Below, piece after piece: positions 5,008-59,142 of a stretch of 64,000 nucleotides of DNA. The stretch comes from Gemmatimonadota bacterium (lineage in GTDB: Bacteria > JBHIER01 > G020348925), in assembly GCA_020348925.1 (NCBI GenBank), contig CP070758.1, positions 2,929,688-2,993,687 of the forward strand, in the 5' to 3' direction. Both the position numbers and the translations under genes were made by a program. The notes below the pieces were generated by a model. That model had not been told where the DNA came from. It made no database searches and saw nothing but the letters and a program-made list of their open reading frames with translations. Every line of letters starts with the position of its first letter. Position 1 is the stretch's first letter.

Positions 5008-7938
5008 CTATTTTAAAAGAATCATCCGCTTCGTGGACGAGAATTTACCGACCGCAAGACGATAGAGGTAGATGCCACTGGCACATTCCGATCCGCTGTT
5101 ATCCTTTCCGTTCCAGTTTACCTTATACTGACCACCTTCTTTTCGATCATCCACCAGGATTCGCACCTCTTGCCCCAACAGGTTGTAAATTTTCAGGGTG
5201 GTGTGGACTGGGGAGTTCACATGCGGTATGTGGTACGTAATTTCTGTTTCCGGGTTGAAGGGATTGGGATAGTTCTGGGCTAAGGCATACTCAGCCGGTA
5301 GGGCCATCTCGTCTTCGACCAGGATCATGAATCGAGTGAAATCTTCCTTATCAAGATAGGCTTTGAGAGCCCTGCAGAATTGGATCACGTCGGTATTGAT
5401 GGTGGCATTGACCCTTTCGGGAAAACAGCCACCCGTACCCAGAATGGCGTTCACGATCCCCAAGGCGTCGAGGATGTTGACGCTGCCGTCAGTATTGCAG
5501 TCGGCCCGGCTGAGAGAACCGCCGATCAATGGGTTCGTGCCCAGGATGTGATTGACGACGGCCAGCACATCCAGGACATCGATGCCTCCCTGGCAGTCGA
5601 TGTCGCCTCTTTCGGCTTCAAACTGATCGGGATTGGGAACATGAGGGCAGTTGTCCTCCTGGCAGGTATTGAGCGCGTATCCGGGGTCGCCGTAGCCGTC
5701 ACCATCGGTGTCGGTGCACTGGTCGCAGAGGTCACCGCTTCCGTCGCCGTCTCCGTCGGTCTGATCCGAGTTGGCTTCATCCGGGCAGTTGTCACAGAAA
5801 TCCCCAACACCATCGGCGTCACCATCTTCCTGTTCCGGGTTGTAGACTTCGGGACAGTTGTCATCGATATCGTTGATCCCATCTTCGTCGTCATCCACTG
5901 ACGCCGGATGGAGGTGCACGCCTTGGATCCAGGTTGTCAGCACCGCCGTTCCGTCGTTTCCGTTTTGGGAGAGATCCGTAATTGTCTCACCGTTGCCCTC
6001 ATTCATCTGCCAGTTCCCGACCAAATGGGATTCGGACCCCTCCAGATAAGAATCCATAGTGGCCGAGATCTCCTCTCCGGTTCGAACGGCATCCCAGATC
6101 CGGACCTCATCGATGCTGCCTTCGTAGGGAAAACTCCGCCCGGCGTCATTTCCTATCACCAGATCGTTGGCGCTGTTGTCCGCGATGGGTCCTGAAGCTG
6201 AAGGTGCCTGTGAGAGGGTCTGTTCAACGCCGTTGAGATACATCCTGATGGTGCTGGTTGCGCCGTCGTACGTCACAGCGACGTGTTGCCAGGTATCGAG
6301 GAGGATGGAATTCTCCGGTGTGACGGTGAAACTGCCGCTGCCGTTGTCGTGGAAAAGTTGCAGTGCCAGACTGTGATCGTTGAAAGCCGGATGCGAGCCC
6401 ACCAGAAAGAGGGTGAATCGGCCTTTGTCAAGCACGCTTCCAAATCCGAGATTGACTAGTGGTCCCCAGCCGGCGGGATTGATCCAGGCCTCGATGGTCA
6501 GGGCCCCGGTGATATTCAAGGTGGGTGCAGCCGGACAGAGGAGAGAGCCGTTACCCCCGCCAAACTGAAGGGCACTTTCACCGTCGAAGACGCGAATGTA
6601 GCTCTCCCGGACTTGGGTGTAGGTGATGGTTCCGTCAGAGACTTTGAGGCTCACAGAGTAAATTCCCGGCTGCGTATACGTCCAGACCGGGTCATGTTCC
6701 TCGGAATCTGTGGTGCCGTCATTTTCGAAATCCCAGGCCCAGGAGGTGAGAGGCTGGAGGGCGTTTGAAAAGTTCGTGAACTGGATGGTCAGAGGCGCAT
6801 GACCGGACACTTCGTCCGTTTGAAAATAGGCACCGTACAAATTGTTCTCCCACCAGGAGATTTCGTTGCTGTAAATCGCAGCTGCCAGAACATCGGGATC
6901 CCCATCGCCGTCAAAATCGGCCACACACGGATATGTTGCACCCTGAAAGTCTTCCGAAAGATCGTGTTGAGTGAAAACCTGATCTCCGTCATTTTCCCAC
7001 CACCTGACAGTACCACCACCCTTGGCGGTTCCCAGAATATCGATATCGCCATCCAGGTCGAGATCGGCGGCATACACCCCGCGGGCTCTCAGAAAATCGA
7101 CGCCAATGACGTGGGGTGTGAAAGACTGACTCCCGTCGTTTTCGTACCACACAATTTGTCCGCCAAAACAGAGTGAGCACACCAGATCCATATGACCGTC
7201 TCGGTCAATGTCTTCGGCATACACGGCAGTCGGCCCATCCACACCGGATTGAACCACATGCTCTGTGAAGAGCCGGTCTCCGGTATTCTCGAACCATAAG
7301 ACCTGTCTTGATCCGGGACCTGTTCCTGCTATATCGATGTCACCGTCCCCATCGATATCTTTCGCATACAGACAGTTGGCTGCTGTCCAGTTTATTCTGA
7401 GGATATGCTCGGTGAAATTCTGGCCGCCGTCATTCTCGAACCAGACAGCTCTTGCAGCCTGGCATGAGGCCACAAGCACATCCATATCCTCGTCACCATC
7501 CATGTCTTCAGCCGCAACGTACGTTGGATTTTGCCAGTTGTCGGCGATGATGTGCTGTGAGAAATTCTGGGTGCCATCGTTTTCCCACCAGGCCACGGTA
7601 TCGCTTTGAAACCCCGCACCCACAACATCAATGTCTCCGTCCGAATCCAGGTCGACTCCGCAGATACCTTTCGGACCGCCAAAGCTGTTGGTGATGCTGT
7701 GTCCGATGAAGTTTTTGTTTCCGTCGTTCTCCCACCAGGCGATGCTGTTGGCCTCAAGAGCCGAACCCACTATATCGATATCCCCATCACCGTCCATATC
7801 GATGGCCACTGCATGCCATGGAGCGTTGAAGTCGTCTGTTACATTGTGTTCAGTGAAAAGAGGCTGCAAAAAGCCGGAGGTTACAAAACAGAAAAGCAAA
7901 ACAGAACATACGATCAAACTACGAAAAAGCGTTTTCAT
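5008..7938 (-). CDS. Secreted FG-GAP/VCBS repeat + PKD + LamG + TSP3 + dockerin + CTD protein
   Basis: Signal peptide, about seven DxDGDGDxD..WWENDG repeats, PKD WDFENDG, LamG TIEAWINP..IDEVRIW, DNCP repeats, dockerin and QNYPNPFNP tail. Confidence 0.92.
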   Translation of the reverse strand: MKTLFRSLIVCSVLLFCFVTSGFLQPLFTEHNVTDDFNAPWHAVAIDMDGDGDIDIVGSALEANSIAWWENDGNKNFIGHSITNSFGGPKGICGVDLDSDGDIDVVGAGFQSDTVAWWENDGTQNFSQHIIADNWQNPTYVAAEDMDGDEDMDVLVASCQAARAVWFENDGGQNFTEHILRINWTAANCLYAKDIDGDGDIDIAGTGPGSRQVLWFENTGDRLFTEHVVQSGVDGPTAVYAEDIDRDGHMDLVCSLCFGGQIVWYENDGSQSFTPHVIGVDFLRARGVYAADLDLDGDIDILGTAKGGGTVRWWENDGDQVFTQHDLSEDFQGATYPCVADFDGDGDPDVLAAAIYSNEISWWENNLYGAYFQTDEVSGHAPLTIQFTNFSNALQPLTSWAWDFENDGTTDSEEHDPVWTYTQPGIYSVSLKVSDGTITYTQVRESYIRVFDGESALQFGGGNGSLLCPAAPTLNITGALTIEAWINPAGWGPLVNLGFGSVLDKGRFTLFLVGSHPAFNDHSLALQLFHDNGSGSFTVTPENSILLDTWQHVAVTYDGATSTIRMYLNGVEQTLSQAPSASGPIADNSANDLVIGNDAGRSFPYEGSIDEVRIWDAVRTGEEISATMDSYLEGSESHLVGNWQMNEGNGETITDLSQNGNDGTAVLTTWIQGVHLHPASVDDDEDGINDIDDNCPEVYNPEQEDGDADGVGDFCDNCPDEANSDQTDGDGDGSGDLCDQCTDTDGDGYGDPGYALNTCQEDNCPHVPNPDQFEAERGDIDCQGGIDVLDVLAVVNHILGTNPLIGGSLSRADCNTDGSVNILDALGIVNAILGTGGCFPERVNATINTDVIQFCRALKAYLDKEDFTRFMILVEDEMALPAEYALAQNYPNPFNPETEITYHIPHVNSPVHTTLKIYNLLGQEVRILVDDRKEGGQYKVNWNGKDNSGSECASGIYLYRLAVGKFSSTKRMILLK

Positions 7939-7990: not shown

Positions 7991-10909
7991 CTATTTCACA
8001 AGGAGCATCTTTTTCGACTGGTTGAAACCTTGAGCCCTCAGCCTGTAAAAGTAAACACCTGAGCTCACCGTGTTGCCGTAATCATCCGTTCCATCCCAGC
8101 GTATGGAGTGATATCCGGGTGCCCGTTCACCTTCAATCAGCCCTTTCACACGCTCGCCTGTCATATTGAAGATGGCCAGGGAGACGTGTGAGGAGATCGG
8201 TATCGCAAACTGAATCGTAGTCTCTGGATTGAAGGGATTGGGATAGTTCTGGGTCAGACTGTACTGGGTCGGTAGAGCCGACTCCGCTTTGACGAGGGCC
8301 ATGAAGCGGGTAAAGTCCGCGGGAGAGAGATACGGTTTGAGGGACCGGCAGTAGTGGATCACATCGGGATCCATTCTTGGTCTGAATGCAGGGGAGCATT
8401 CACCAAGACCCAGGATGGCGTTCACGATCCCCAGGGCGTCGAGGATGTCGACACTGCCGTCGGTGTTGCAATCGGCCCGCTGTAGCGGTCCTCCGGTCAA
8501 CGGCGTCGTGCCCAGGATGTGGTTGACGACGGCTAGGACATCCAGGACATCGATACCTCCCTGGCAATCGATGTTGCCTGGCTCAACCTCGGCCTGATCC
8601 GGATTGGGGACGGACGGGCAATTGTCCTCCTGACAGGTATTGGCCGGGTATCCGGGGTCGCCGTAGCCGTCACCGTCGGTATCGGTGCAGTTGTCGCAGA
8701 CATCGCCTGAACCGTCACCGTCATCGTCGATCTGATCCGGATTTGGCTCATGGGGGCAGTTGTCGCAGACATCGCCGAGGCCGTCACCGTCCGCATCCGC
8801 CTGATCCGGATTGTGGTCATGGATACAGTTGTCGTCCACATCAAGGATTCCATCCTCGTCGGTATCGGTTGTCGCAGGATCAAGGTGCACGCCCTGAAAC
8901 CAGAGAGCATCAACGACGGTGCCGTCGTTCCCATTGCCCGACATGTCAGTCATCGTCGCACCAGTGCCTTCGTTCATCTGCCAGTAGCCGGCCAGGCCGG
9001 ATTCGTTTCCGACCAGATACCTGTCCCTGTGAGCCTGGATGTCCTCAGTCGAGCGAACCACATTCCAGAGTCGAACCTCATCGATGAGCCCTTCAAAGGT
9101 TAATCCGAGACTGACATCACTCCCGATGAAGAGATTGTCCGCCCCGTTGTCTCTCAGAATTCCTGAAGGAAGAGTGGGTTGGCTGAGCGTCTGCTCCTCG
9201 CCGTTCAAATATATTCTGACAGTGCTCGTGGCACCGTTATAGGTTGCGGCGATGTGTTGCCAGTCGTCCAGCACAATTGATTGTACCGGTGTGAGTGCAT
9301 AACTGCTTGAACCGTCATCGTGGAACAACTGGAGGATGAGGCTGTTATCATTGAAAGCCGCATGGGTGCCGACGAGATAAAGAACGCATCCACCCTTGTC
9401 GAGAATCCTGCCGAAGCCGAGATTGAATATTTCGCCCCAGCTTACGGGATGGATCCAGGCCTCGACGGTCAGGGCCTCAGTGATGTTCAGGGATGGAGCG
9501 GCCGGACAGGAGATATGGCTGTCCCGGCCGTTAAACTGGAGGGCACTCTCACCGTCAAAAACCCGAACGTAATCATCCCGGATCTGTGTATACGTGACGG
9601 ATTCATTCGACACTTCCAGTGCAACGGAATACGTTCCGGGGACCGTATACGTCCACGTCGGGTGTTGCTCCTCAGAATCGATGGACCCGTTATTTTCGAA
9701 ATCCCACAACCACGTTGTGAGAGGAGAGGAGGCGTTGGACAGATTTGTAAATTGAACCGAAAGCGGTGCATGCCCGGAGGTGACGTCCGGCTGAAATTCG
9801 GCCCCGTACAGTTTGTTCTCCCACCACGTGATCTGATTGCCGAATTGGGCCGCTCCCACAATGTCGACATCTCCGTCGGTGTCTATGTCTTCGGGATGAA
9901 GACTCGTGGCTCCGTTGAAATTGTCCGAGACGATGTGCTTTGTGAAATGCTGTGATCCGTCGTTTTCCCACCAGGCAATTTCGTCGCTATCGATGGCTGC
10001 TCCCAGAATGTCCGTGTCACCGTCATTGTCCATGTCCGCCGTCCGGACGAAGTGCGGTCTCATGAAATTTTCTCCGAGGACGTGTTGGGTGAACACCTCG
10101 TGGCCGTCGTTTTCAAACCAAGCGATCTGATTGACCTGACAGGCCGTCCCAAGCACATCGATATCGCCATCAAGGTCGACATCCGCTGCATCGACGCAGC
10201 TGGGACGCCCCCAACTACCCAAAATCGTATGTTCGGAAAAATTTTGATGACCGTCATTTTCGAACCATGAGATGTCGTTTGCGAAGGCGGCTGTGCCCAG
10301 TATATCCACATCCCCATCTGAGTCGACATCAGATGCATGAACACTATTGACGTGATCCCAATTCTGCTTCACCATATGCTCTGTGAAGTTCTGATGACCG
10401 TCGTTTTCATACCATGCTACTCTGTTGGAGCCGTCTTCGCATGCTGTTGCCAGAATATCCACGTCACCGTCTGAATCGACATCAATCGCATACACGTAAT
10501 TTGGAGAGAGCAAATTTGCGACGGCGTGTTCTGTGAAGTTTCCAAGTCCGTCGTTTTCATACCATACGATCCTATCCGCTTCCTGAAGGGTACAGACCAC
10601 ATCAACATCGTTGTCCGAATCAAGATCAATGGCATAGAGCCCCATGGCAAAAGTTGCCGCTGCTGAAATGATGTGCTCTGTAAAATGTTGGTGGCCATCG
10701 TTCTCCCACCAGGCAACGCGGCTGCCGAAACGGGTGGAGCCGAGCAGATCGGTATCGTTATCGTTATCCACATCAACGGCAAAGACACTCCAGGAATTGT
10801 ATTCTCCCGAAATTGGATGTTCTGTGAAGAAGATCTCCGCAGAGCCCAATGGAGTCAAGAGTATGATAAACGCGCAGATACCGATGGAGCACAGTACCAT
10901 GTTTTTCAC
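7991..10909 (-). CDS. Secreted FG-GAP/VCBS repeat + PKD + LamG + TSP3 + dockerin + CTD protein
   Basis: Same architecture as 5008..7938. Start moved to GTG at 10909 because it follows AAGGAGG and is followed by a signal peptide. Confidence 0.92.
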   Translation of the reverse strand: MKNMVLCSIGICAFIILLTPLGSAEIFFTEHPISGEYNSWSVFAVDVDNDNDTDLLGSTRFGSRVAWWENDGHQHFTEHIISAAATFAMGLYAIDLDSDNDVDVVCTLQEADRIVWYENDGLGNFTEHAVANLLSPNYVYAIDVDSDGDVDILATACEDGSNRVAWYENDGHQNFTEHMVKQNWDHVNSVHASDVDSDGDVDILGTAAFANDISWFENDGHQNFSEHTILGSWGRPSCVDAADVDLDGDIDVLGTACQVNQIAWFENDGHEVFTQHVLGENFMRPHFVRTADMDNDGDTDILGAAIDSDEIAWWENDGSQHFTKHIVSDNFNGATSLHPEDIDTDGDVDIVGAAQFGNQITWWENKLYGAEFQPDVTSGHAPLSVQFTNLSNASSPLTTWLWDFENNGSIDSEEQHPTWTYTVPGTYSVALEVSNESVTYTQIRDDYVRVFDGESALQFNGRDSHISCPAAPSLNITEALTVEAWIHPVSWGEIFNLGFGRILDKGGCVLYLVGTHAAFNDNSLILQLFHDDGSSSYALTPVQSIVLDDWQHIAATYNGATSTVRIYLNGEEQTLSQPTLPSGILRDNGADNLFIGSDVSLGLTFEGLIDEVRLWNVVRSTEDIQAHRDRYLVGNESGLAGYWQMNEGTGATMTDMSGNGNDGTVVDALWFQGVHLDPATTDTDEDGILDVDDNCIHDHNPDQADADGDGLGDVCDNCPHEPNPDQIDDDGDGSGDVCDNCTDTDGDGYGDPGYPANTCQEDNCPSVPNPDQAEVEPGNIDCQGGIDVLDVLAVVNHILGTTPLTGGPLQRADCNTDGSVDILDALGIVNAILGLGECSPAFRPRMDPDVIHYCRSLKPYLSPADFTRFMALVKAESALPTQYSLTQNYPNPFNPETTIQFAIPISSHVSLAIFNMTGERVKGLIEGERAPGYHSIRWDGTDDYGNTVSSGVYFYRLRAQGFNQSKKMLLVK

Positions 10910-17504: not shown

Positions 17505-19694
17505 ATGAAATTCCGATTCGAGAAACGTAAGAACGGTGGTTCCAGACCACCACTTTCAGAACTGGTGGTCTGGGCATTCTGTCTTGGTGTGATTTTCACA
17601 GGCCCCGTGATGTCCCAAGAGGGGAGTGGGCCAAAGATTGACGTGTCTCAGGAGATGTGGGACTTTGGCACCATTCGACGGGGTGAGGAAGTGACCTGTC
17701 CCCTTGTTATTGCAAACATGGGAAAAGGGACCTTGCATATCACACAGGTACGGAGCAGTTGCACCACCTGCAGTGTGGTGAAAGGGTACAAAGAAAGACT
17801 CGGACCGGGTGAGTCGACCGATGTCAAGGTGACTTTTCGGGCCGAGGGCAGAAAAGGGAGGATCACCAAGACAATCTATATCGATTCGAACGATCCTGAC
17901 CAGCCTCGGACAGTCTTTCGCGTTACAGGAATTGTCGAAAAGAGCGAAGCTCCCGAAATCGTCGTCGATCCCAACCCGTGGTACCCCGATTCCATTACGA
18001 CCGATCCGCGCAGCGGTGGAGAGCTCCTCATCACCAATGACGGTTTGACCGACCTCATCGTGAAAAAGATGGAGGCGGCGGGCTGTGTGGTCAAGGAGAC
18101 GTCAATACCTGCCATCGGCCCTGGGGATTCTGCTGTGGTGCATGTCTCGTTCAATCTGAAATCCATGGTATGGGAGGGTGAACGGTATGTGATGTTTCAT
18201 TCGAATGACCCCTACCAGCGGGAGCTGAAAGTAAAGATTAGGGGAGATGTGGTCTCGACTGGTTCCCAGGACACGACGCGCGTCTGTTCCCTGATTTTCC
18301 TGTCAAAGGACTGTACGGAGTGCGCCTATGTCATGAGTCAGGTCGTTGCTCCTTTGCAGAAGATGTATCCGGGGCTCCAGATCAGAACGATAGCCGTCGA
18401 TGATCCACACAACTACAATCTCTTGACGAACCTTGAAAAAAAGTACAAAGACACGAGTAACGAAATCCCTGTTCTATTCATCGATACCTTTGTCTTAGGG
18501 GGAAGAAAGGAGATCGAGAGGGATCTCGTGGGGCGAATTACAGGCTGTATTGAGAAGGGCGGATGTGCGTTTCCTGAATATGACGAGGAAAAGCCTTCCG
18601 GGCGGAAATCCGTGAAAAAACCGATTTACATGGCATATTTCTATCAGCCTGGTTGTAAGCAATGTGATCGCGTCAACCATATGTTGAAAAGTTTGCGAAA
18701 GCGTTATGAGAAGTTGCATATCAAAGAGTTCAATATCGGAACAATAGAGAATAAGCTCTTGAATGAATCAATCGGCGAGCTTTTAAAAGTACCGGATAAA
18801 AAGCGGCTGTTGACTCCGGCCTTGGTGGTTGGGGATCAGTACTTCGTTCAGCATGATATTACCGACCAGCGGGTCCAAAGTGCAGTCGAAGGCTTCCGGG
18901 ATACGGGGAGTATGTGCTCCTGGGATGAAGCAAAGGATCTCCAAGCTGAAGCCAAAATGAGCATCATTGAGCGTTTCAAAGCTTTTGGCCCAATCACTGT
19001 TCTCCTGGGCGGTCTCGTTGATGGGGTGAACCCCTGCGCGTTCGCAACAATAATCTTTTTTATATCATATCTTACCTATATCGGGCGCAAGGGGAAAGAT
19101 CTGCTTTACGTGGGTCTTGCTTTTACGGTGGCTGTTTTTATGACGTACCTTCTGGTCGGTTTCGGTATCTTTAATTTCATTCAGTCCCTGAAGATTTTCG
19201 ATGTTGTGAGCATGATCATCTATGTCGTAACCGCAGCCTTGGCGTTCATTCTTGGCACTTACAGTGTCTATGATATGCTGAAGATCAGACGAGGTCGCGT
19301 GAGTGAAATCACGCTTCAGCTGCCGAACTTTCTCAAAAAGCGTATCCATAAAACGATTCGGAAGAGAGCCAGAATGCGGCGTTACGTGTTGGCCGCGTTT
19401 ATCACCGGATGGATTGTGTCGCTGTTAGAATTGTTCTGTACGGGACAAGTGTATCTGCCCACGATTGCTTTTGTAACCGGTGTTCCCGAATTACGGCTCC
19501 ACGCCTTTTATTATCTAGTATTGTACAACCTCATGTTCGTTCTGCCTCTCTGCATTGTTTTTGGCCTGACGTACTACGGGACGACTTCGGAACAGATCGC
19601 CGGCTGGATGAAGCGACATATTATTGCAATGAAAGCAGCGTTGGCGATGTTCTTTTTCTGTCTTGGCGGATTTTTGTTGTCCGTCATTTTTTAA
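17505..19694 (+). CDS. Fusion of DUF1573-like Ig domains, two thioredoxin-like CxxC domains and a CcdA/DsbD-like membrane domain
   Basis: WDFGTI..SSCTTC..SNDP (DUF1573-like); CTEC and CKQC motifs; membrane domain with DGVNPCAF and ELFCTGQVYLP. Confidence 0.8.
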   Translation: MKFRFEKRKNGGSRPPLSELVVWAFCLGVIFTGPVMSQEGSGPKIDVSQEMWDFGTIRRGEEVTCPLVIANMGKGTLHITQVRSSCTTCSVVKGYKERLGPGESTDVKVTFRAEGRKGRITKTIYIDSNDPDQPRTVFRVTGIVEKSEAPEIVVDPNPWYPDSITTDPRSGGELLITNDGLTDLIVKKMEAAGCVVKETSIPAIGPGDSAVVHVSFNLKSMVWEGERYVMFHSNDPYQRELKVKIRGDVVSTGSQDTTRVCSLIFLSKDCTECAYVMSQVVAPLQKMYPGLQIRTIAVDDPHNYNLLTNLEKKYKDTSNEIPVLFIDTFVLGGRKEIERDLVGRITGCIEKGGCAFPEYDEEKPSGRKSVKKPIYMAYFYQPGCKQCDRVNHMLKSLRKRYEKLHIKEFNIGTIENKLLNESIGELLKVPDKKRLLTPALVVGDQYFVQHDITDQRVQSAVEGFRDTGSMCSWDEAKDLQAEAKMSIIERFKAFGPITVLLGGLVDGVNPCAFATIIFFISYLTYIGRKGKDLLYVGLAFTVAVFMTYLLVGFGIFNFIQSLKIFDVVSMIIYVVTAALAFILGTYSVYDMLKIRRGRVSEITLQLPNFLKKRIHKTIRKRARMRRYVLAAFITGWIVSLLELFCTGQVYLPTIAFVTGVPELRLHAFYYLVLYNLMFVLPLCIVFGLTYYGTTSEQIAGWMKRHIIAMKAALAMFFFCLGGFLLSVIF

Positions 19695-19707
19695 GGGAGA
19701 TGAATCG

Positions 19708-20802
19708 ATGATGAATGTTCACCATAAAATATGCGTGGCCTTCCTGTGCACTTGGTTCTGGCTAATATTCTGTGCCCTTTCCCAGGGCCATTCCGATCCT
19801 CTTTTCGTGTCCAGAGCCGATACGACGGGGTGTGAGGGCAAGTGGTTGATATTTTCGATATACGCCGATGCCCTCTTTCCGGATGACGAGCTGGAGTTCG
19901 ATATGGAGAGTGCCCCTGAAGGGGCACTGCTTGAAAACCTTGGTAAATGTGGGTGACCGGTGAGCTCTATCCGCTGGGAGGCGGAATTCACGCTTCAAGG
20001 GCAAGATGCAGTTGCCGGTTTATACGAAGTCGTTTTTTATGTTTTCGATCAGTATGGAGGAATGGATAGCCATACCATGTCCATTGAAATTGTAGGAGGT
20101 ACTCCCATTGCCGGATTTACGGGCTCTCCCCTCATCGGGTGTGTGCCTTTGAGGGTTGACTTTACGGATCAGTCCAGCATGAGTCCCACGAGTTGGTCGT
20201 GGAGCTTTGGTGATGAGGACTCGAGCAGCCAGGAGCATCCATCGCACACGTACAGTTTTCCCGGTACGTACGAGGTGACTTTATCCGTCAGGAACGTGTG
20301 CGGTTCGGATGATGAGATCAAAAACAATTATATCACCGTCGGTGCGGCTCCGGTGGCCGGGTTCTCCGGCTCTCCAACAGAGGGGTGTATGCCCTTGAGG
20401 GTGGACTTCATCGATGAGAGCAGCGGGAATGTGACCGGTTGGTCCTGGAGCTTCGGCGATGGGGATTCAAGCGCCCAGCAGAATCCGTCGCACACGTATG
20501 ACAGCCTTGGAACGTACACCGTTACTTTAATTGCAAGCAACACATGTGGCTCCGACGAGGAGAGTGCCCCGGCTTTCATCGTGGTCTCCTCCTGTGCAAT
20601 CCGGGGTGATGTGAACAGCGATGGGGATGTCGATCTTCTGGACATTATTACCACAGCCAATCACATACTGGGAATCGTGACCTTAGAGGGAGATGCCCTG
20701 TGGGCCGCCGATTGTAACGGTGACGGTGATATCGATCTTCTCGATCTTATTCGTATTGCCAATGTCATCTTAGGACTTGGATCATGTGCCCCCGTGGATT
20801 AA
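19708..20802 (+). CDS. Secreted Ig-like + 2 PKD + dockerin protein with in-frame UGA at 19954-19956 (probable selenocysteine, C-G-U)
   Basis: ORFs 19663..19956 and 19960..20802 are in frame. The cadherin/He_PIG-like Ig domain spans the stop. RBS and signal peptide exist only upstream of the TGA, and a hairpin follows it. Confidence 0.75.
19960..19991 (+). other. Putative bacterial SECIS element
   Basis: Upper stem TCCGCT/GGCGGA closes a GGGA loop that starts 19 nt after the UGA. Lower stem is GTGAG/TTCAC. Confidence 0.6.
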
Positions 20803-48075: not shown

Positions 48076-48885
48076 ATGTTTCAGAAGTTTCCTCCCTTCG
48101 ATGTGATGAACAGAGTTTTCGTTGTTGCCGTTGGTCTGCTGTTGACCTTCCCAGTCCTTCTGGGCGCAGTCGGATCCGGAGACAGGGCGGTCGTGGAGCT
48201 TTCTTCGAGCGAGGTACGAACCGATCTGTCCGTGAGGACAGTTCAGGTTCCGGTGGCTGTCTCGAACACGAAGGTTATGGCGGGCGTCCAGCTCTCTGTG
48301 AAGTTCGATACCGAAGGCATGGTTCCCGGGGAACCGGAGTTGACGGCTCGCAGTGCAAGCATGTCGATCGCCTCCAATTCGAAAGACGGCGAGATGGTTG
48401 TTCTGCTGTACAGCACCGATGGAAAAGGTATTTCCCCCGGTGACGGACCGATCGTGTCGCTCTCTTTCGCCATCATGGATGGGATGGATGCAACAGGCGC
48501 GATCCGATTGGAGAAGGTCATCTTGGCCAGCCCGGAGGCCACAGCTCTTCCTGCTGTCGTCAGGCCAACGACGATATCCGTTGGGTCGCGGACGCCCACC
48601 CGTTATGACTTGACCCAGAACTATCCCAATCCCTTCAATCCGACAACCAGTATTCGGTATGCGGTGGTCGGTGATCAGTCCCCCCCGCACGTTACCCTGA
48701 AGATCTATACCGTGCTCGGGCAGGAGGTGCAGACGCTGGTGGATGAGCCGCAGAAATCGGGGTACTACACGATCGATTGGGATGGGCGAGACCAATACGG
48801 CGCACAGGTAGCGAGCGGTATCTACTTCTGCCGGCTCCGGGCCGGAGACTATGCGGCCACCATCAGGATGGTCCTGATGAAATAA
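48076..48885 (+). CDS. Single cohesin-like domain + CTD protein
   Basis: Signal peptide; cohesin-like VQVPVAVSN..AGVQLSVKFD..GDGPIVSLSF..IRLEKV; QNYPNPFNP..RMVLMK tail. Confidence 0.78.
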   Translation: MFQKFPPFDVMNRVFVVAVGLLLTFPVLLGAVGSGDRAVVELSSSEVRTDLSVRTVQVPVAVSNTKVMAGVQLSVKFDTEGMVPGEPELTARSASMSIASNSKDGEMVVLLYSTDGKGISPGDGPIVSLSFAIMDGMDATGAIRLEKVILASPEATALPAVVRPTTISVGSRTPTRYDLTQNYPNPFNPTTSIRYAVVGDQSPPHVTLKIYTVLGQEVQTLVDEPQKSGYYTIDWDGRDQYGAQVASGIYFCRLRAGDYAATIRMVLMK

Positions 48886-55903: not shown

Positions 55904-58513
55904 ATGAGAGTGAAATTGATGTGTGTTCTATTCTTCGCTATCCTCTGCCTGTTTGTCAGTGTAGGGTTAACACAGATGATTGCCGATATTACCGAAGATG
56001 TGGAGACCGAATTCGGGACGTATCATCCCTATTTGGTTGAAATTGTTCCGGACGCTGCGCAGTATACGGTCGAACCGGACTTCAGCAACGTCGTCAATTT
56101 TTCTGATTTCGGGTTCACCGAGGCGGAAGAGAGCCTTCTGGCATCACACTATTTCGTCGTGTCACCGGTGAGAGATATAGGCGGTACGGGTTACAAGGAG
56201 ATATATGATATCTACAATGAATGTCGGGAGTTTGGGATTCCTATTTTCGTGACCACGGACGCCGTGCTCCACACCTATCATCTCTGCTTCGATAAGATCC
56301 TCAAGACAATCGAGCAACAGAAACTCTTCGGCGACCTGCACGACATGCTGTTGTCTCTTTTCGATGAGACGGTTGCTCAATACGAGGCCGCCCAGGACAG
56401 CAGCGTTCGGGACGCTTTAACACGAAATCTCAATTACCTCGTCGTGGCCGCGACCCTTCTGGACAGCACCTTCGATTCGGGGATCAACGGCGGTCCGTTC
56501 CTGGCAGAGCTCACGCTCATTCAGGAACACACGGGCTTTGAAATATCGCCCATTTTCGATTATGCTGAAGATTACAGTCAATATATACCACGTGGGCATT
56601 ACACCGACTCCGATTCGCTCAGGCATTACTTTTTGTCCATGATGTGGCTGGGGCGAATGACCTTCGCCGCGGACCCGATGGAGCCTGAAAGAAGCCGGGA
56701 GGCGACCCTCAGCGCGATCCTCCTCCTCCAGGCCTTCGACCGGACCGATGTTCTTCAGGTATGGGAAAATATTTACCTGCCGACGGTCTTTTTTGTGGGG
56801 AAATCGGACGACATCGATTCCTATCAGTACCTGGACATCGCAGAACACGTTTATGGTGAAGGCTTTTCGGAATTTTCACCGGACAGTTTTTCGGAGCGCT
56901 CGTCCTTTGACGAGTTCCTGGATCTGGCCATGAACCTGCCCGGTCCGAAGATCTCCTATCCGGGACAACCGAAGGGTTTTCGACTCATGGGGCAGCGATT
57001 CATTCCGGATTCGTACATTCTCGATCAATTGGTTATGCTCTTCACGTCTCGTCTCCTGCCAAAAGGTCTGGATGTCATGTCGGTCCTGGGATCGGACCGG
57101 GCGTACGAGATCCTGGATGAGGTCTACGGCGAGATGCGCGATCCGGCCTACGTTCAGCAGATGGCCAAGCTGAAAGCAGAATTCGAGGCATACCCTGATA
57201 GCATATGGGCCCAGAATGTCTACTGGAACTGGCTCTACTCGTTGATGCCGCTCCTGTTTGAGAAGGGTGAGGGCTATCCGCCCTTTATGCAGAACCAGGC
57301 CTGGACGGACAAGGATCTCAATGCGGCCCTGGGATCTTGGACCGAGCTGCGGCATGACACCATCCTCTATGCCAAACAGAGCGGCACCGAGACGAGCATA
57401 CCGCCGGCGTCGTACCTCGAACAGGGCTATGTCGAACCCAATCCGTTTCTCTATGCGCGGCTGGCCGCCCTTGACCAGTTGATGATCACCGGATTGGATG
57501 ATCAAGGGCTCCTCTTTCCCTCCTTCGGCCAATCTCTGGAGACGCTGCGGGATCTCCTCTTGTCTTTCAAGACGATTTCGGAGAAGGAGCTGACAAACCA
57601 GCCGCTGACCGGCGAGGAATATGACGTCATCTGTAACGTCGGCCTGACCATTGAGGCCATCGTCGAGTTTCAGCCGCCTGAATGGATCGCAGGGCCGATG
57701 CCCGATTCGGAGGACGAGATGCCGGTGGTGGCCGATGTGCACACCGATGCCAATTCCGGACAGGTCCTGGAGGAGGGCGTCGGGTATCCCTTCAGTATAT
57801 TTGTGATCTGCAATGTCGAAGGTCAGTTGAAAGTGACGCGGGGAGCGGTCTTCTCCTATTACGAATTTCCCTGGCCGATGAGCGATCGTCTGACCGACGA
57901 GGCCTGGATCGGTATGCTCCGGAGTGAGGAGCCGCCGCAGCTCCCCGTGTGGACCGGCAGCTTTCTCGATCAGAACCACCCGCTGCTGAATGACGATCCC
58001 TGGCCCTATATGTGGGGGAAACAGGGGTACATCAGTGCTGCCGTTACGCTTGATGAGGATCGTTACACCATAGGCGACACGGTGACGGTTCATGTCAGTT
58101 CCTATGCCACCATGTCCGCCGAACCGACGATTCGGGTCATCGCCCCGGATGGTTCGTCTTTTATGGTGACGGCCCTGTGGGAGGAAGGTGATGGCTACGC
58201 CGGGAGGTTCACCACCCAGGGTTTGATGACAGGGACCGTGCACCTTGAGAGCGAGATATGTTTTGCCTGGGAACCTCCTGACTGTATCACCTATCGAACC
58301 GGGTTCCCCCTCGATCCCGTCGAAGCGTTGAAAGGGGACATCACGGGTGACGGTGTCGTTGATATTTCGGATGTGATGTTCGCCGTCAATATCATTCTCA
58401 ATCTTTTCGATCCCGCACCCCTTCAGTTCTGGGCGGCGGATATGAATGGAGATAGCACGGTGGATGTTTTGGATATTGTCATGATGGTCAATCAGATTCT
58501 GGAGGGATTATGA
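55904..58513 (+). CDS. DUF3160 protein + Ig-like + dockerin
   Basis: Close paralog of 49369..52371; ends in the dockerin KGDITGDG..ADMNGD. Confidence 0.87.
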   Translation: MRVKLMCVLFFAILCLFVSVGLTQMIADITEDVETEFGTYHPYLVEIVPDAAQYTVEPDFSNVVNFSDFGFTEAEESLLASHYFVVSPVRDIGGTGYKEIYDIYNECREFGIPIFVTTDAVLHTYHLCFDKILKTIEQQKLFGDLHDMLLSLFDETVAQYEAAQDSSVRDALTRNLNYLVVAATLLDSTFDSGINGGPFLAELTLIQEHTGFEISPIFDYAEDYSQYIPRGHYTDSDSLRHYFLSMMWLGRMTFAADPMEPERSREATLSAILLLQAFDRTDVLQVWENIYLPTVFFVGKSDDIDSYQYLDIAEHVYGEGFSEFSPDSFSERSSFDEFLDLAMNLPGPKISYPGQPKGFRLMGQRFIPDSYILDQLVMLFTSRLLPKGLDVMSVLGSDRAYEILDEVYGEMRDPAYVQQMAKLKAEFEAYPDSIWAQNVYWNWLYSLMPLLFEKGEGYPPFMQNQAWTDKDLNAALGSWTELRHDTILYAKQSGTETSIPPASYLEQGYVEPNPFLYARLAALDQLMITGLDDQGLLFPSFGQSLETLRDLLLSFKTISEKELTNQPLTGEEYDVICNVGLTIEAIVEFQPPEWIAGPMPDSEDEMPVVADVHTDANSGQVLEEGVGYPFSIFVICNVEGQLKVTRGAVFSYYEFPWPMSDRLTDEAWIGMLRSEEPPQLPVWTGSFLDQNHPLLNDDPWPYMWGKQGYISAAVTLDEDRYTIGDTVTVHVSSYATMSAEPTIRVIAPDGSSFMVTALWEEGDGYAGRFTTQGLMTGTVHLESEICFAWEPPDCITYRTGFPLDPVEALKGDITGDGVVDISDVMFAVNIILNLFDPAPLQFWAADMNGDSTVDVLDIVMMVNQILEGL

Positions 58514-59142
58514 GAGAGAAGATAATGCTGCTTGCTGTTATTCTTATTTCCGTTGCCTTTCCCGTTCGTTTTGCCCACAGTCAACTTTCGGGTAATATTG
58601 AAACTGGGTTTACCTATTTCAAGGTCGGAATTCACGAGCAGCCGTCCGTACCCGTATATGAATATACCGTAGCGACCAATGACAGCGAGGTGATAGCCCA
58701 GTGTCTGGAGCAATTGTCGTTGCCCGAGGATCTGCGCGATCTCCATATCAACGGTGCTATCGACTGGGGTGACGGAGGCTTCAATACATCCTGGAGCTGG
58801 CATATTGTTCCTGACGACTGGCATCTGGCCGGAATGTCGGCTGAGGTGTGTGACGGCTCTCCGCAATTTGTCGAGGAAAATCTTGAGTACTGGATCAACG
58901 CGGTTGGTCGTTATTGTTGCTATGACAGTTACATCAAAGGCCAAGTGAAGATTGGTGATGTCAATGGGGACGGTGCCATAGATATCCTGGACGTGATGTT
59001 TGTGGTGAACATCATCCTCGAACTGACACAGCCCACACCCGACCAGATCTGGGCGGCGGATTCCAACAATGACGGCGTCGTCGACATTTTCGATATTTTT
59101 GGGATAGTTGAAATAATCTTGGGCAATGATGGGTTGCAATGA
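58510..59142 (+). CDS. BP74-N-like domain + dockerin secreted protein
   Basis: HINGAI..FNTSWSWH..AEVCDG.P.FVE motif; dockerin GDVNGDG; 4-nt overlap with the upstream stop. Confidence 0.7.
   Translation: MREKIMLLAVILISVAFPVRFAHSQLSGNIETGFTYFKVGIHEQPSVPVYEYTVATNDSEVIAQCLEQLSLPEDLRDLHINGAIDWGDGGFNTSWSWHIVPDDWHLAGMSAEVCDGSPQFVEENLEYWINAVGRYCCYDSYIKGQVKIGDVNGDGAIDILDVMFVVNIILELTQPTPDQIWAADSNNDGVVDIFDIFGIVEIILGNDGLQ

Follow-up and report, generated by a model that had tools for sequence, protein, structure and literature searches.

We analysed a 64,000 nt stretch of DNA, hereafter the window, from a Gemmatimonadota bacterium (assembly GCA_020348925.1, contig CP070758.1, forward-strand positions 2,929,688 to 2,993,687). 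At 19708-20802 on its plus strand lies a gene that is predicted to encode a secreted, dockerin-tagged selenoprotein. Its single frame runs from an ATG at 19708 to a TAA at 20800-20802 (364 codons plus the TAA), and its sole interruption is the TGA at 19954-19956, located between LGKCG and PVSSIRW as described in the initial annotation. Gene callers cut the region into 19708-19956 (82 aa) and 19960-20802 (280 aa). Translated with TGA as selenocysteine (Sec, U), 19708-20802 yields 364 residues with U83 within ...ENLGKCGUPVSSIRWEAEF.... A ribosome-binding-site-like GGGAG (19695-19699, plus strand) was read from the sequence 8 nt before the ATG, and the TAA of the upstream gene ends at 19694, 13 nt before the same ATG.

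All protein features described here are encoded on the plus strand. A Sec-type (general secretory) signal peptide is predicted for residues 1-27 (19708-19788), with cleavage guessed after ALSQG. By eye, the N-terminus MMNVHHKICVAFLCTWFWLIFCALSQG/HS resembles a signal peptide, and all four N-terminal homologues presented below share its basic-then-hydrophobic start. A lipoprotein reading was rejected, as by eye no lipobox stands ahead of the Cys residues of the signal peptide. A divergent Ig-like domain of the He_PIG/Big_9 type follows (19789-20100, residues ~28-131) and spans the TGA. It precedes two PKD domains (20101-20574; PF18911, two stretches, 125.5 bits, 8.4e-37; PF00801, 89 bits, 2.1e-25) and a type I dockerin (20605-20769, residues 300-354; PF00404, 5.9e-09, 36.4 bits at a cut-off of 22.9), which was recovered in the genome-wide search as well (C1:2950292-2950456). 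The order suggested by the initial annotation, a signal peptide before the TGA and PKD-PKD-dockerin after it, was thus confirmed by Pfam for the second part and is borne out by sequence reading and the common N-terminal form of the homologues for the first. Only the N-terminal piece bears a signal peptide, though PKD and dockerin are extracellular modules.

The placement of the TGA inside an Ig-like domain is supported by repeat alignments, though without a direct Pfam match. With the threshold relaxed to E <= 10, DUF4625 (E 0.12) was the sole Pfam match to residues 1-134, a PDB sequence search returned nothing meaningful (best E 0.032), and Pfam and NCBIfam revealed no thioredoxin-family match in the selenoprotein. 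Homology to He_PIG (PF05345) and Big_9 (PF17963) is transitive only: phmmer related the domain at E 1e-14 to 1e-10 to large multi-repeat surface proteins whose aligned repeats are He_PIG/Big_9 in Pfam, and the pairwise alignments cross the TGA. Altogether, the alignment of 58 distant He_PIG/Big_9 repeats, drawn from 33 proteins, extends over both flanks of the TGA with unchanged length (SRPGYVEYKLRW compared to GKCGUPVSSIRW).

The codons TGT GGG TGA at 19948-19956 specify Cys81-Gly82-Sec83 in a turn whose counterpart in the closest ordinary repeats is P-G-Y. Gly82 is conserved in 24 of 31 aligned distant repeats, while the commonest residues are Tyr at the Sec83 column (14/32 aligned) and Pro at the Cys81 column (10/31 aligned). 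A further cysteine, Cys42 (TGT at 19831-19833, in a CEG motif), is invariant in the five family members and is replaced by Gln, Thr or Ala in the distant repeats, Gln being commonest (12/36 aligned). The geometry of Cys42, Cys81 and Sec83 and the exposure of the loop were inferred from the alignment. Since the distant repeats align without length change and carry Tyr and Pro at these columns, and since no Cys form was found, Sec and the adjoining Cys would have arisen by substitution in the turn of an ordinary Ig-like repeat.

A full HMMER pass of the N-terminal 134 residues against 1.84 billion representative proteins returned 61 hits. The four close N-terminal homologues have lengths of 82, 82, 77 and 81 residues, and each of them terminates at query residue 82, the last one ahead of the TGA column. 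Their C-terminal ends and identities are ...KCG and 71% (P0003), ...KCG and 55% (P0004), ...SCG and 45% (P0016), and ...PPG and 42% (P0029). A fifth hit, P0019, starts at residue 85 and has a PKD-dockerin tail very like that of the window, and the remaining 56 hits are large multi-repeat surface proteins. The metagenome locus encoding P0004 (L017) carries TGA at the same codon, and its frame then runs on without a stop for a further 160 codons, as far as the contig reaches. It is 51% identical to the window over 133 residues and conserves PGTSVRWEANF...GLYEVVFFV just past the TGA; no in-frame ATG, GTG or TTG occurs until 22 codons past it. By codon position (1/2/3), the nucleotide differences between window and L017 number 25/26/56 ahead of the TGA and 18/13/30 in the 50 codons that follow. 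Such a third-position bias on both sides is typical of a frame that is translated before and after the TGA.

The TGA is hence verified in both loci with DNA, the window and L017; the metagenome scan found L017 as the only further locus and the genome-contig scans gave none. In the initial annotation, TGA or Cys at this column in homologues had been set against Trp, Arg or Gly: all four close homologues end there, and the L017 DNA reads TGA. Word-indexed protein searches recovered a full-length or Cys form in none of 26 candidates (proteins of 200-637 aa) and otherwise returned only the window's own 82-aa piece. Apart from the four N-terminal fragments, the remaining 57 hits have no CxC at the corresponding turn. 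At 1320-1651 of L017 a Big_9-like domain follows the shared Ig-like domain in place of the PKD domains, which indicates that the C-terminal modules of the family vary while the Sec domain is kept. In the GTDB-based genome set the phylum comprises two genomes (G000, the genome of the window, and G001), so that comparative evidence from relatives is nearly absent.

The genome (5.04 Mb in a single contig, 96.3% complete) was searched for the Sec machinery that the initial annotation had proposed as a check, and all four components were present: a tRNA-Sec with anticodon TCA (65.8 bits at a cut-off of 47) as well as SelA (520.8 bits), the SelB wing domain (76.3 bits) and SelD (372 bits), each over its curated cut-off. 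The gene encoding SelD itself contains one in-frame TGA. As TGA is the commonest ordinary stop, terminating 1035 of 2404 long open reading frames, a genetic code with TGA as a sense codon (code 4 or 25) was rejected. A genome-wide scan for in-frame TGA, in which read-through translations were checked with Pfam and NCBIfam, brought up no fewer than 17 additional probable selenoprotein genes. In 16 of these the family match spans the TGA, and L034 was recognized by a motif shared with such genes. They comprise genes for an FdhA-like protein, two FlpD, two HdrA-like and two AhpD/CMD proteins, SelD, a thioredoxin-TPR protein, Thioredoxin_3, DUF1573/OS_HP2 (L041, motif RSSUGC, 104.8 bits at a cut-off of 100), AhpC/TSA, two DUF1223/Omp28-related proteins and three beta-propellers with an FHCPGGU motif.

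Downstream of the TGA a SECIS-like (selenocysteine insertion sequence-like) hairpin, UCCGCU-GGGA-GGCGGA, was found at 19970-19985 on the plus strand (6 bp, -8.4 kcal/mol), its loop occupying nt 23-26 when the U of the UGA is taken as nt 1. The GGGA-loop hairpin reported in the initial annotation therefore exists, whereas the reported distance of 19 nt downstream fits the start of the loop and the stem starts 13 nt after the UGA. The SECIS of E. coli fdhF is numbered with G23, U24 and a bulged U17. In both elements a small hairpin immediately follows the UGA and has a G at nt 23; they differ in that the loop here is GGGA instead of GGUC, no bulged U is present, and the hairpin is weaker in L017.

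The best perfect hairpins of 14 validated selenoprotein genes in the genome range from -6.8 to -11.7 kcal/mol with 6-9 bp and loop starts at nt 18-37; with its stability and a loop start at nt 23, the candidate ranks ninth of 15. SECIS loops of the genome mostly bear G-U (GGUC, GUC, GUU, CGUGA), with GGC occurring twice, and a GGGA loop is unusual, yet within the genome's range. Perfect hairpins of equal or greater stability that have G among the first two bases of the loop and a loop start at nt 18-40 were observed downstream of 1.5% of 3977 sampled in-frame TGA sites and of 2.0% of about 4000 random in-frame coding positions. The hairpin thus exceeds chance and is, alone, not decisive; as a SECIS it is consistent with Sec insertion without proving it. 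Two other structures were discarded as SECIS candidates: a long-range fold CCGG...CCGG, with a z score of -2.8 in the window and of -0.06 in L017, is not kept, and L017 lacks the other structure, a local hairpin GAGGCG-GAAUUCA-CGCUUC (-7.4 kcal/mol). In the preprint by Haft and Gwadz (10.1101/2022.07.06.499078), server-based prediction of SECIS is reported to have failed on true selenoproteins.

A lone TGA in an otherwise intact frame has the look of a fresh nonsense mutation, and no Cys homologue is known; a pseudogene or a sequencing or assembly error had to be considered. The same stop position in four of four close homologues at 42-71% identity speaks against a nonsense mutation, as does the TGA of L017 at 51% protein identity, with its third-position-biased divergence on either side. 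With regard to an error, the TGA is covered without differences by contigs from other runs, namely X2 (19400-20512) and X9 (19821-20044, from a different study). Contig X8 (19951-20208) likewise shows the TGA with 0 differences, at 3 bases from the contig end, and X3 leaves the site uncovered. The initial annotation had named a sense codon in the reads as a refutation; these contigs from other samples carry TGA, which indicates that it did not arise by an assembly error confined to a single data set. Pseudogene and error are largely refuted and appear the least probable of the explanations weighed here.

The region could also hold two real genes, one for an 82-residue secreted peptide ending at the TGA and one for a separately started PKD-dockerin protein of 280 residues, the stop then being conserved for its role in termination. 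This would agree with the GTG at 19960, two codons past the TGA in the window, and with the database proteins, in which callers split every member in this way (82, 82, 77, 81 and 198 aa). It is difficult to reconcile with a stop that falls within a single Ig-like domain, to which 58 ordinary repeats can be aligned before and after the stop, with the 22 codons of L017 that lack a start-like codon and are conserved nevertheless, and with a downstream piece made up of extracellular modules without a signal peptide. Conservation of the stop, the TGA of L017 and the contigs of other runs together render two independent genes, like a pseudogene or an assembly error, unlikely, and we consider the two-gene model very improbable. 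A further rival is programmed read-through of the UGA without Sec, e.g. by near-cognate insertion of Trp, Cys or Arg, possibly setting a ratio of short to long product. UGA followed by C, as here, is the leakiest bacterial stop context, and the hairpin is modest with a loop atypical for the genome. Yet the fdhA and flpD selenoprotein genes of this genome use UGA-C as well, a Cys two residues away is the usual context of Sec, and the organism possesses a full Sec system with at least 17 other Sec genes. Read-through of this kind is in our view a slight possibility.

Decoding of the TGA as Sec is favoured because the full Sec system is present, the stop is conserved at the column, coding continues in frame and the domain is continuous over the TGA. 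Judged from these sequence data, TGA 19954 very probably encodes selenocysteine, and the product would then be a single secreted, dockerin-tagged polypeptide that contains Sec83. Several observations weigh against it. The hairpin is short and its loop lacks the G-U of most SECIS loops in the genome; in L017 the loop and the distance are kept but a C.A mismatch reduces the stability to -5.4 kcal/mol. As the hairpin bases also encode the conserved R-W-E-A, conservation of the RNA and of the protein is inseparable. The identity of the stop codon was read in two of the five family members, P0003, P0016 and P0029 being known by their protein ends only. No Cys homologue was found at the Sec column, which is unusual for selenoprotein families, and the distant repeats most often have Tyr there. 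P0029 lacks Cys81 while keeping Cys42, so that the Cys81-Sec83 pair is not universal and the resolving partner is uncertain. Moreover, with the queries used, G001 (87% complete), the sole other genome of the phylum in the set, has neither the selenoprotein nor the upstream gene.

The initial annotation did not recognise the architecture as belonging to any described selenoprotein family, and this view was upheld. NCBIfam release 20.0 contains no selenoprotein family for the protein (P0001) or its L017 orthologue (P0064), and Table 1 of a 2026 review covering 119 families and subfamilies (PMC13188914) has no Ig-like, He_PIG, PKD or dockerin family. The main text of the BSepDB paper does not mention Ig-like, He_PIG, PKD or dockerin. 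Full-text literature searches for dockerin with selenocysteine or selenoprotein returned no paper on such proteins, as judged mostly from the listed entries. As far as checked, this is most likely a previously uncatalogued selenoprotein family.

The nearest concept is DUF1573/OS_HP2 (PF07610, NF041425; PMC13188914 Table 1). Both proteins are secreted, have an Ig-like beta-sandwich instead of a thioredoxin fold, and place Sec one Gly away from a Cys. The present genome has one DUF1573/OS_HP2 selenoprotein (L041), and the gene upstream of our selenoprotein carries two DUF1573 domains of the Cys type. In contrast, DUF1573/OS_HP2 shows no sequence match to the N-terminal domain described here, which is He_PIG/Big_9-like and followed by PKD domains and a dockerin, and the motif order is reversed (U-G-C versus C-G-U). 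Omp28-related 'hypothetical protein GOS_C' (NF045500, UxxC) is likewise a secreted protein that has its Sec close to the N-terminus, is cut in two by gene callers and, in this genome, bears a dockerin (L049, L050); it differs by its thioredoxin-like DUF1223/Omp28 fold and UxxC motif and has no homology to our protein.

Cys and Sec are also one residue apart in the CxU families listed in the table of the 2026 review, rhodanese-like form 3 (NF041203), UshA-like (NF041198), ferredoxin-thioredoxin reductase (NF041072) and thioredoxin-like Sec.1 (PF13192). All four have other folds, and their models did not match P0001 or P0064 at E <= 0.1 or 0.001. From the CxxU/UxxC oxidoreductases of thioredoxin fold the protein is set apart by a C-x-U in an Ig-like beta-turn. 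SaoB/SaoX (10.1101/2022.07.06.499078) resemble it in being exported, non-thioredoxin-fold proteins with Sec adjacent to Cys that are truncated in databases. Unlike it, they have ABC substrate-binding folds, a nine-gene locus and a CU dipeptide and lack Ig-like, PKD or dockerin modules. In that preprint, Haft and Gwadz read the CU/CC motifs of SAO selenoproteins as heavy-metal ligands, a role akin to the alternative function considered below for the C-G-U protein.

At least six of the other selenoprotein candidates carry dockerins (L034, L035, L038, L039, L049 and L050). Three are secreted, Vgb-lyase-like beta-propellers with FHCPGG-U, a dockerin and a sorting domain of the type IX secretion system (T9SS), located at G000:C1:1815892-1818720 (L034), 1818787-1821348 (L035) and 2669849-2671258 (L038). 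Strong hairpins follow their in-frame TGA, they belong to no NCBIfam selenoprotein family, and nothing alike is found in the 119-family table (PMC13188914). These FHCPGGU beta-propellers may constitute a second new selenoprotein family. The remaining three are known selenoprotein kinds mounted on dockerins, namely an AhpC/TSA protein with U-G-F-C (L039, G000:C1:2672880-2673632) and the two DUF1223/Omp28-related proteins with U-x-G-C (L049, G000:C1:4778512-4780524; L050, 4776490-4778502), which are related to NF045500 and score below its cut-off. A dockerin match containing a TGA (G000:C1:4080164-4080334, 160-aa frame) was noticed beside a weak tRNA-like hit at 4080520-4080602.

Over the cut-off, the genome yielded at least 148 matches to dockerin (of 527 candidates, 150 were scored) and 73 to cohesin, which identifies dockerin tagging as the organism's general route of surface mounting. 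T9SS sorting domains are used in this genome as well. Within the window, further dockerins lie at 1682-1831, 5440-5607 and 8411-8560 on the minus strand and at 58331-58501 and 58954-59097 on the plus strand, and a cohesin lies at 48238-48501 on the plus strand.

The gene directly upstream (17505-19694, plus strand) encodes a 729-aa protein with a signal/anchor sequence, two DUF1573 domains, two thioredoxin/glutaredoxin-like domains with CxxC, and a C-terminal CcdA-like polytopic domain. Pfam detected DUF1573 (90.2 bits) and Glrx-like matches, and the NCBIfam OS_HP2 domain scored 75.3 bits, below its cut-off of 100. The first DUF1573 reads RSSCTTC, with a Cys where L041 has RSSUGC. The membrane domain, which contains conserved Cys, has 843 homologues at E <= 0.001, named 'cytochrome c biogenesis protein CcdA' or 'thiol-disulfide isomerase/thioredoxin' by JGI. 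This gene is also located directly 5' in L017, and hence in both loci with DNA, with 77% identity over the 301 residues compared.

We propose the 729-aa protein as the redox partner of the selenoprotein. The link is based on adjacency, and a terminator-like hairpin with a T run at 19664-19686, inside the last codons of the upstream gene and just 5' of the ribosome-binding site of the selenoprotein gene, counts against it, though such sites are not commoner here than in shuffled sequences (6 versus 4.4). By eye, the terminator-like hairpin is not kept in L017.

In the mechanism that we envisage for Sec insertion, the small hairpin at 19970-19985 would recruit SelB with Sec-tRNA(Sec), and Sec83 would be inserted at the UGA. 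The 27-residue signal peptide would then carry the protein over the inner membrane, and the C-terminal dockerin would plug it into one of the organism's many cohesin-bearing surface proteins. There, on the outside of the cell, the Cys81-Gly-Sec83 turn could form a reversible selenenylsulfide and serve as a redox-active site. The CcdA-like electron conduit encoded upstream, with its fused two CxxC thioredoxin-like and two DUF1573 domains, would keep this site reduced. Provided that the protein is a selenoprotein, we regard a redox-active C-G-U at the surface that is reduced by the upstream protein as an evenly balanced proposition. The main alternative function would be the binding of soft metals or metalloids by the thiol/selenol pair. 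The decoding mechanism is ordinary; what is unusual is the fold and the surface display.

Discovery of bacterial selenoproteins has been held back by gene callers that halt at UGA and by methods that lean on thioredoxin-like folds and Cys homologues. The Ig-like C-G-U family has neither a thioredoxin-like fold nor Cys homologues, and every known member is truncated in databases. If the prediction is true, one more family would stand beside the approximately 119 catalogued, and scaffolds of the adhesion type would be shown to accommodate Sec. In combination with the other six candidates that bear dockerins, this would place selenium chemistry outside the cell on a cohesin-dockerin scaffold. The two-gene cassette of a CcdA-like/thioredoxin relay and a Sec protein is open to biochemical testing.

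More speculatively, this sparsely sampled lineage of the Fibrobacteres-Chlorobi-Bacteroidetes (FCB) type might display at least seven selenoproteins (the Ig-domain C-G-U protein, the peroxiredoxin-like protein, two Omp28/DUF1223-like proteins and three beta-propellers with FHCPGGU) on its cohesin-dockerin scaffold, as an apparatus for selenium-based redox chemistry outside the cell, fed with electrons via CcdA-like/thioredoxin membrane relays. In such an apparatus, the substrates could conceivably be external ones in sulfidic sediment, e.g. polysulfide, sulfur, metal(loid)s or oxidants. It would, again tentatively, imply that a non-enzymatic Ig fold of the adhesion type has acquired Sec.

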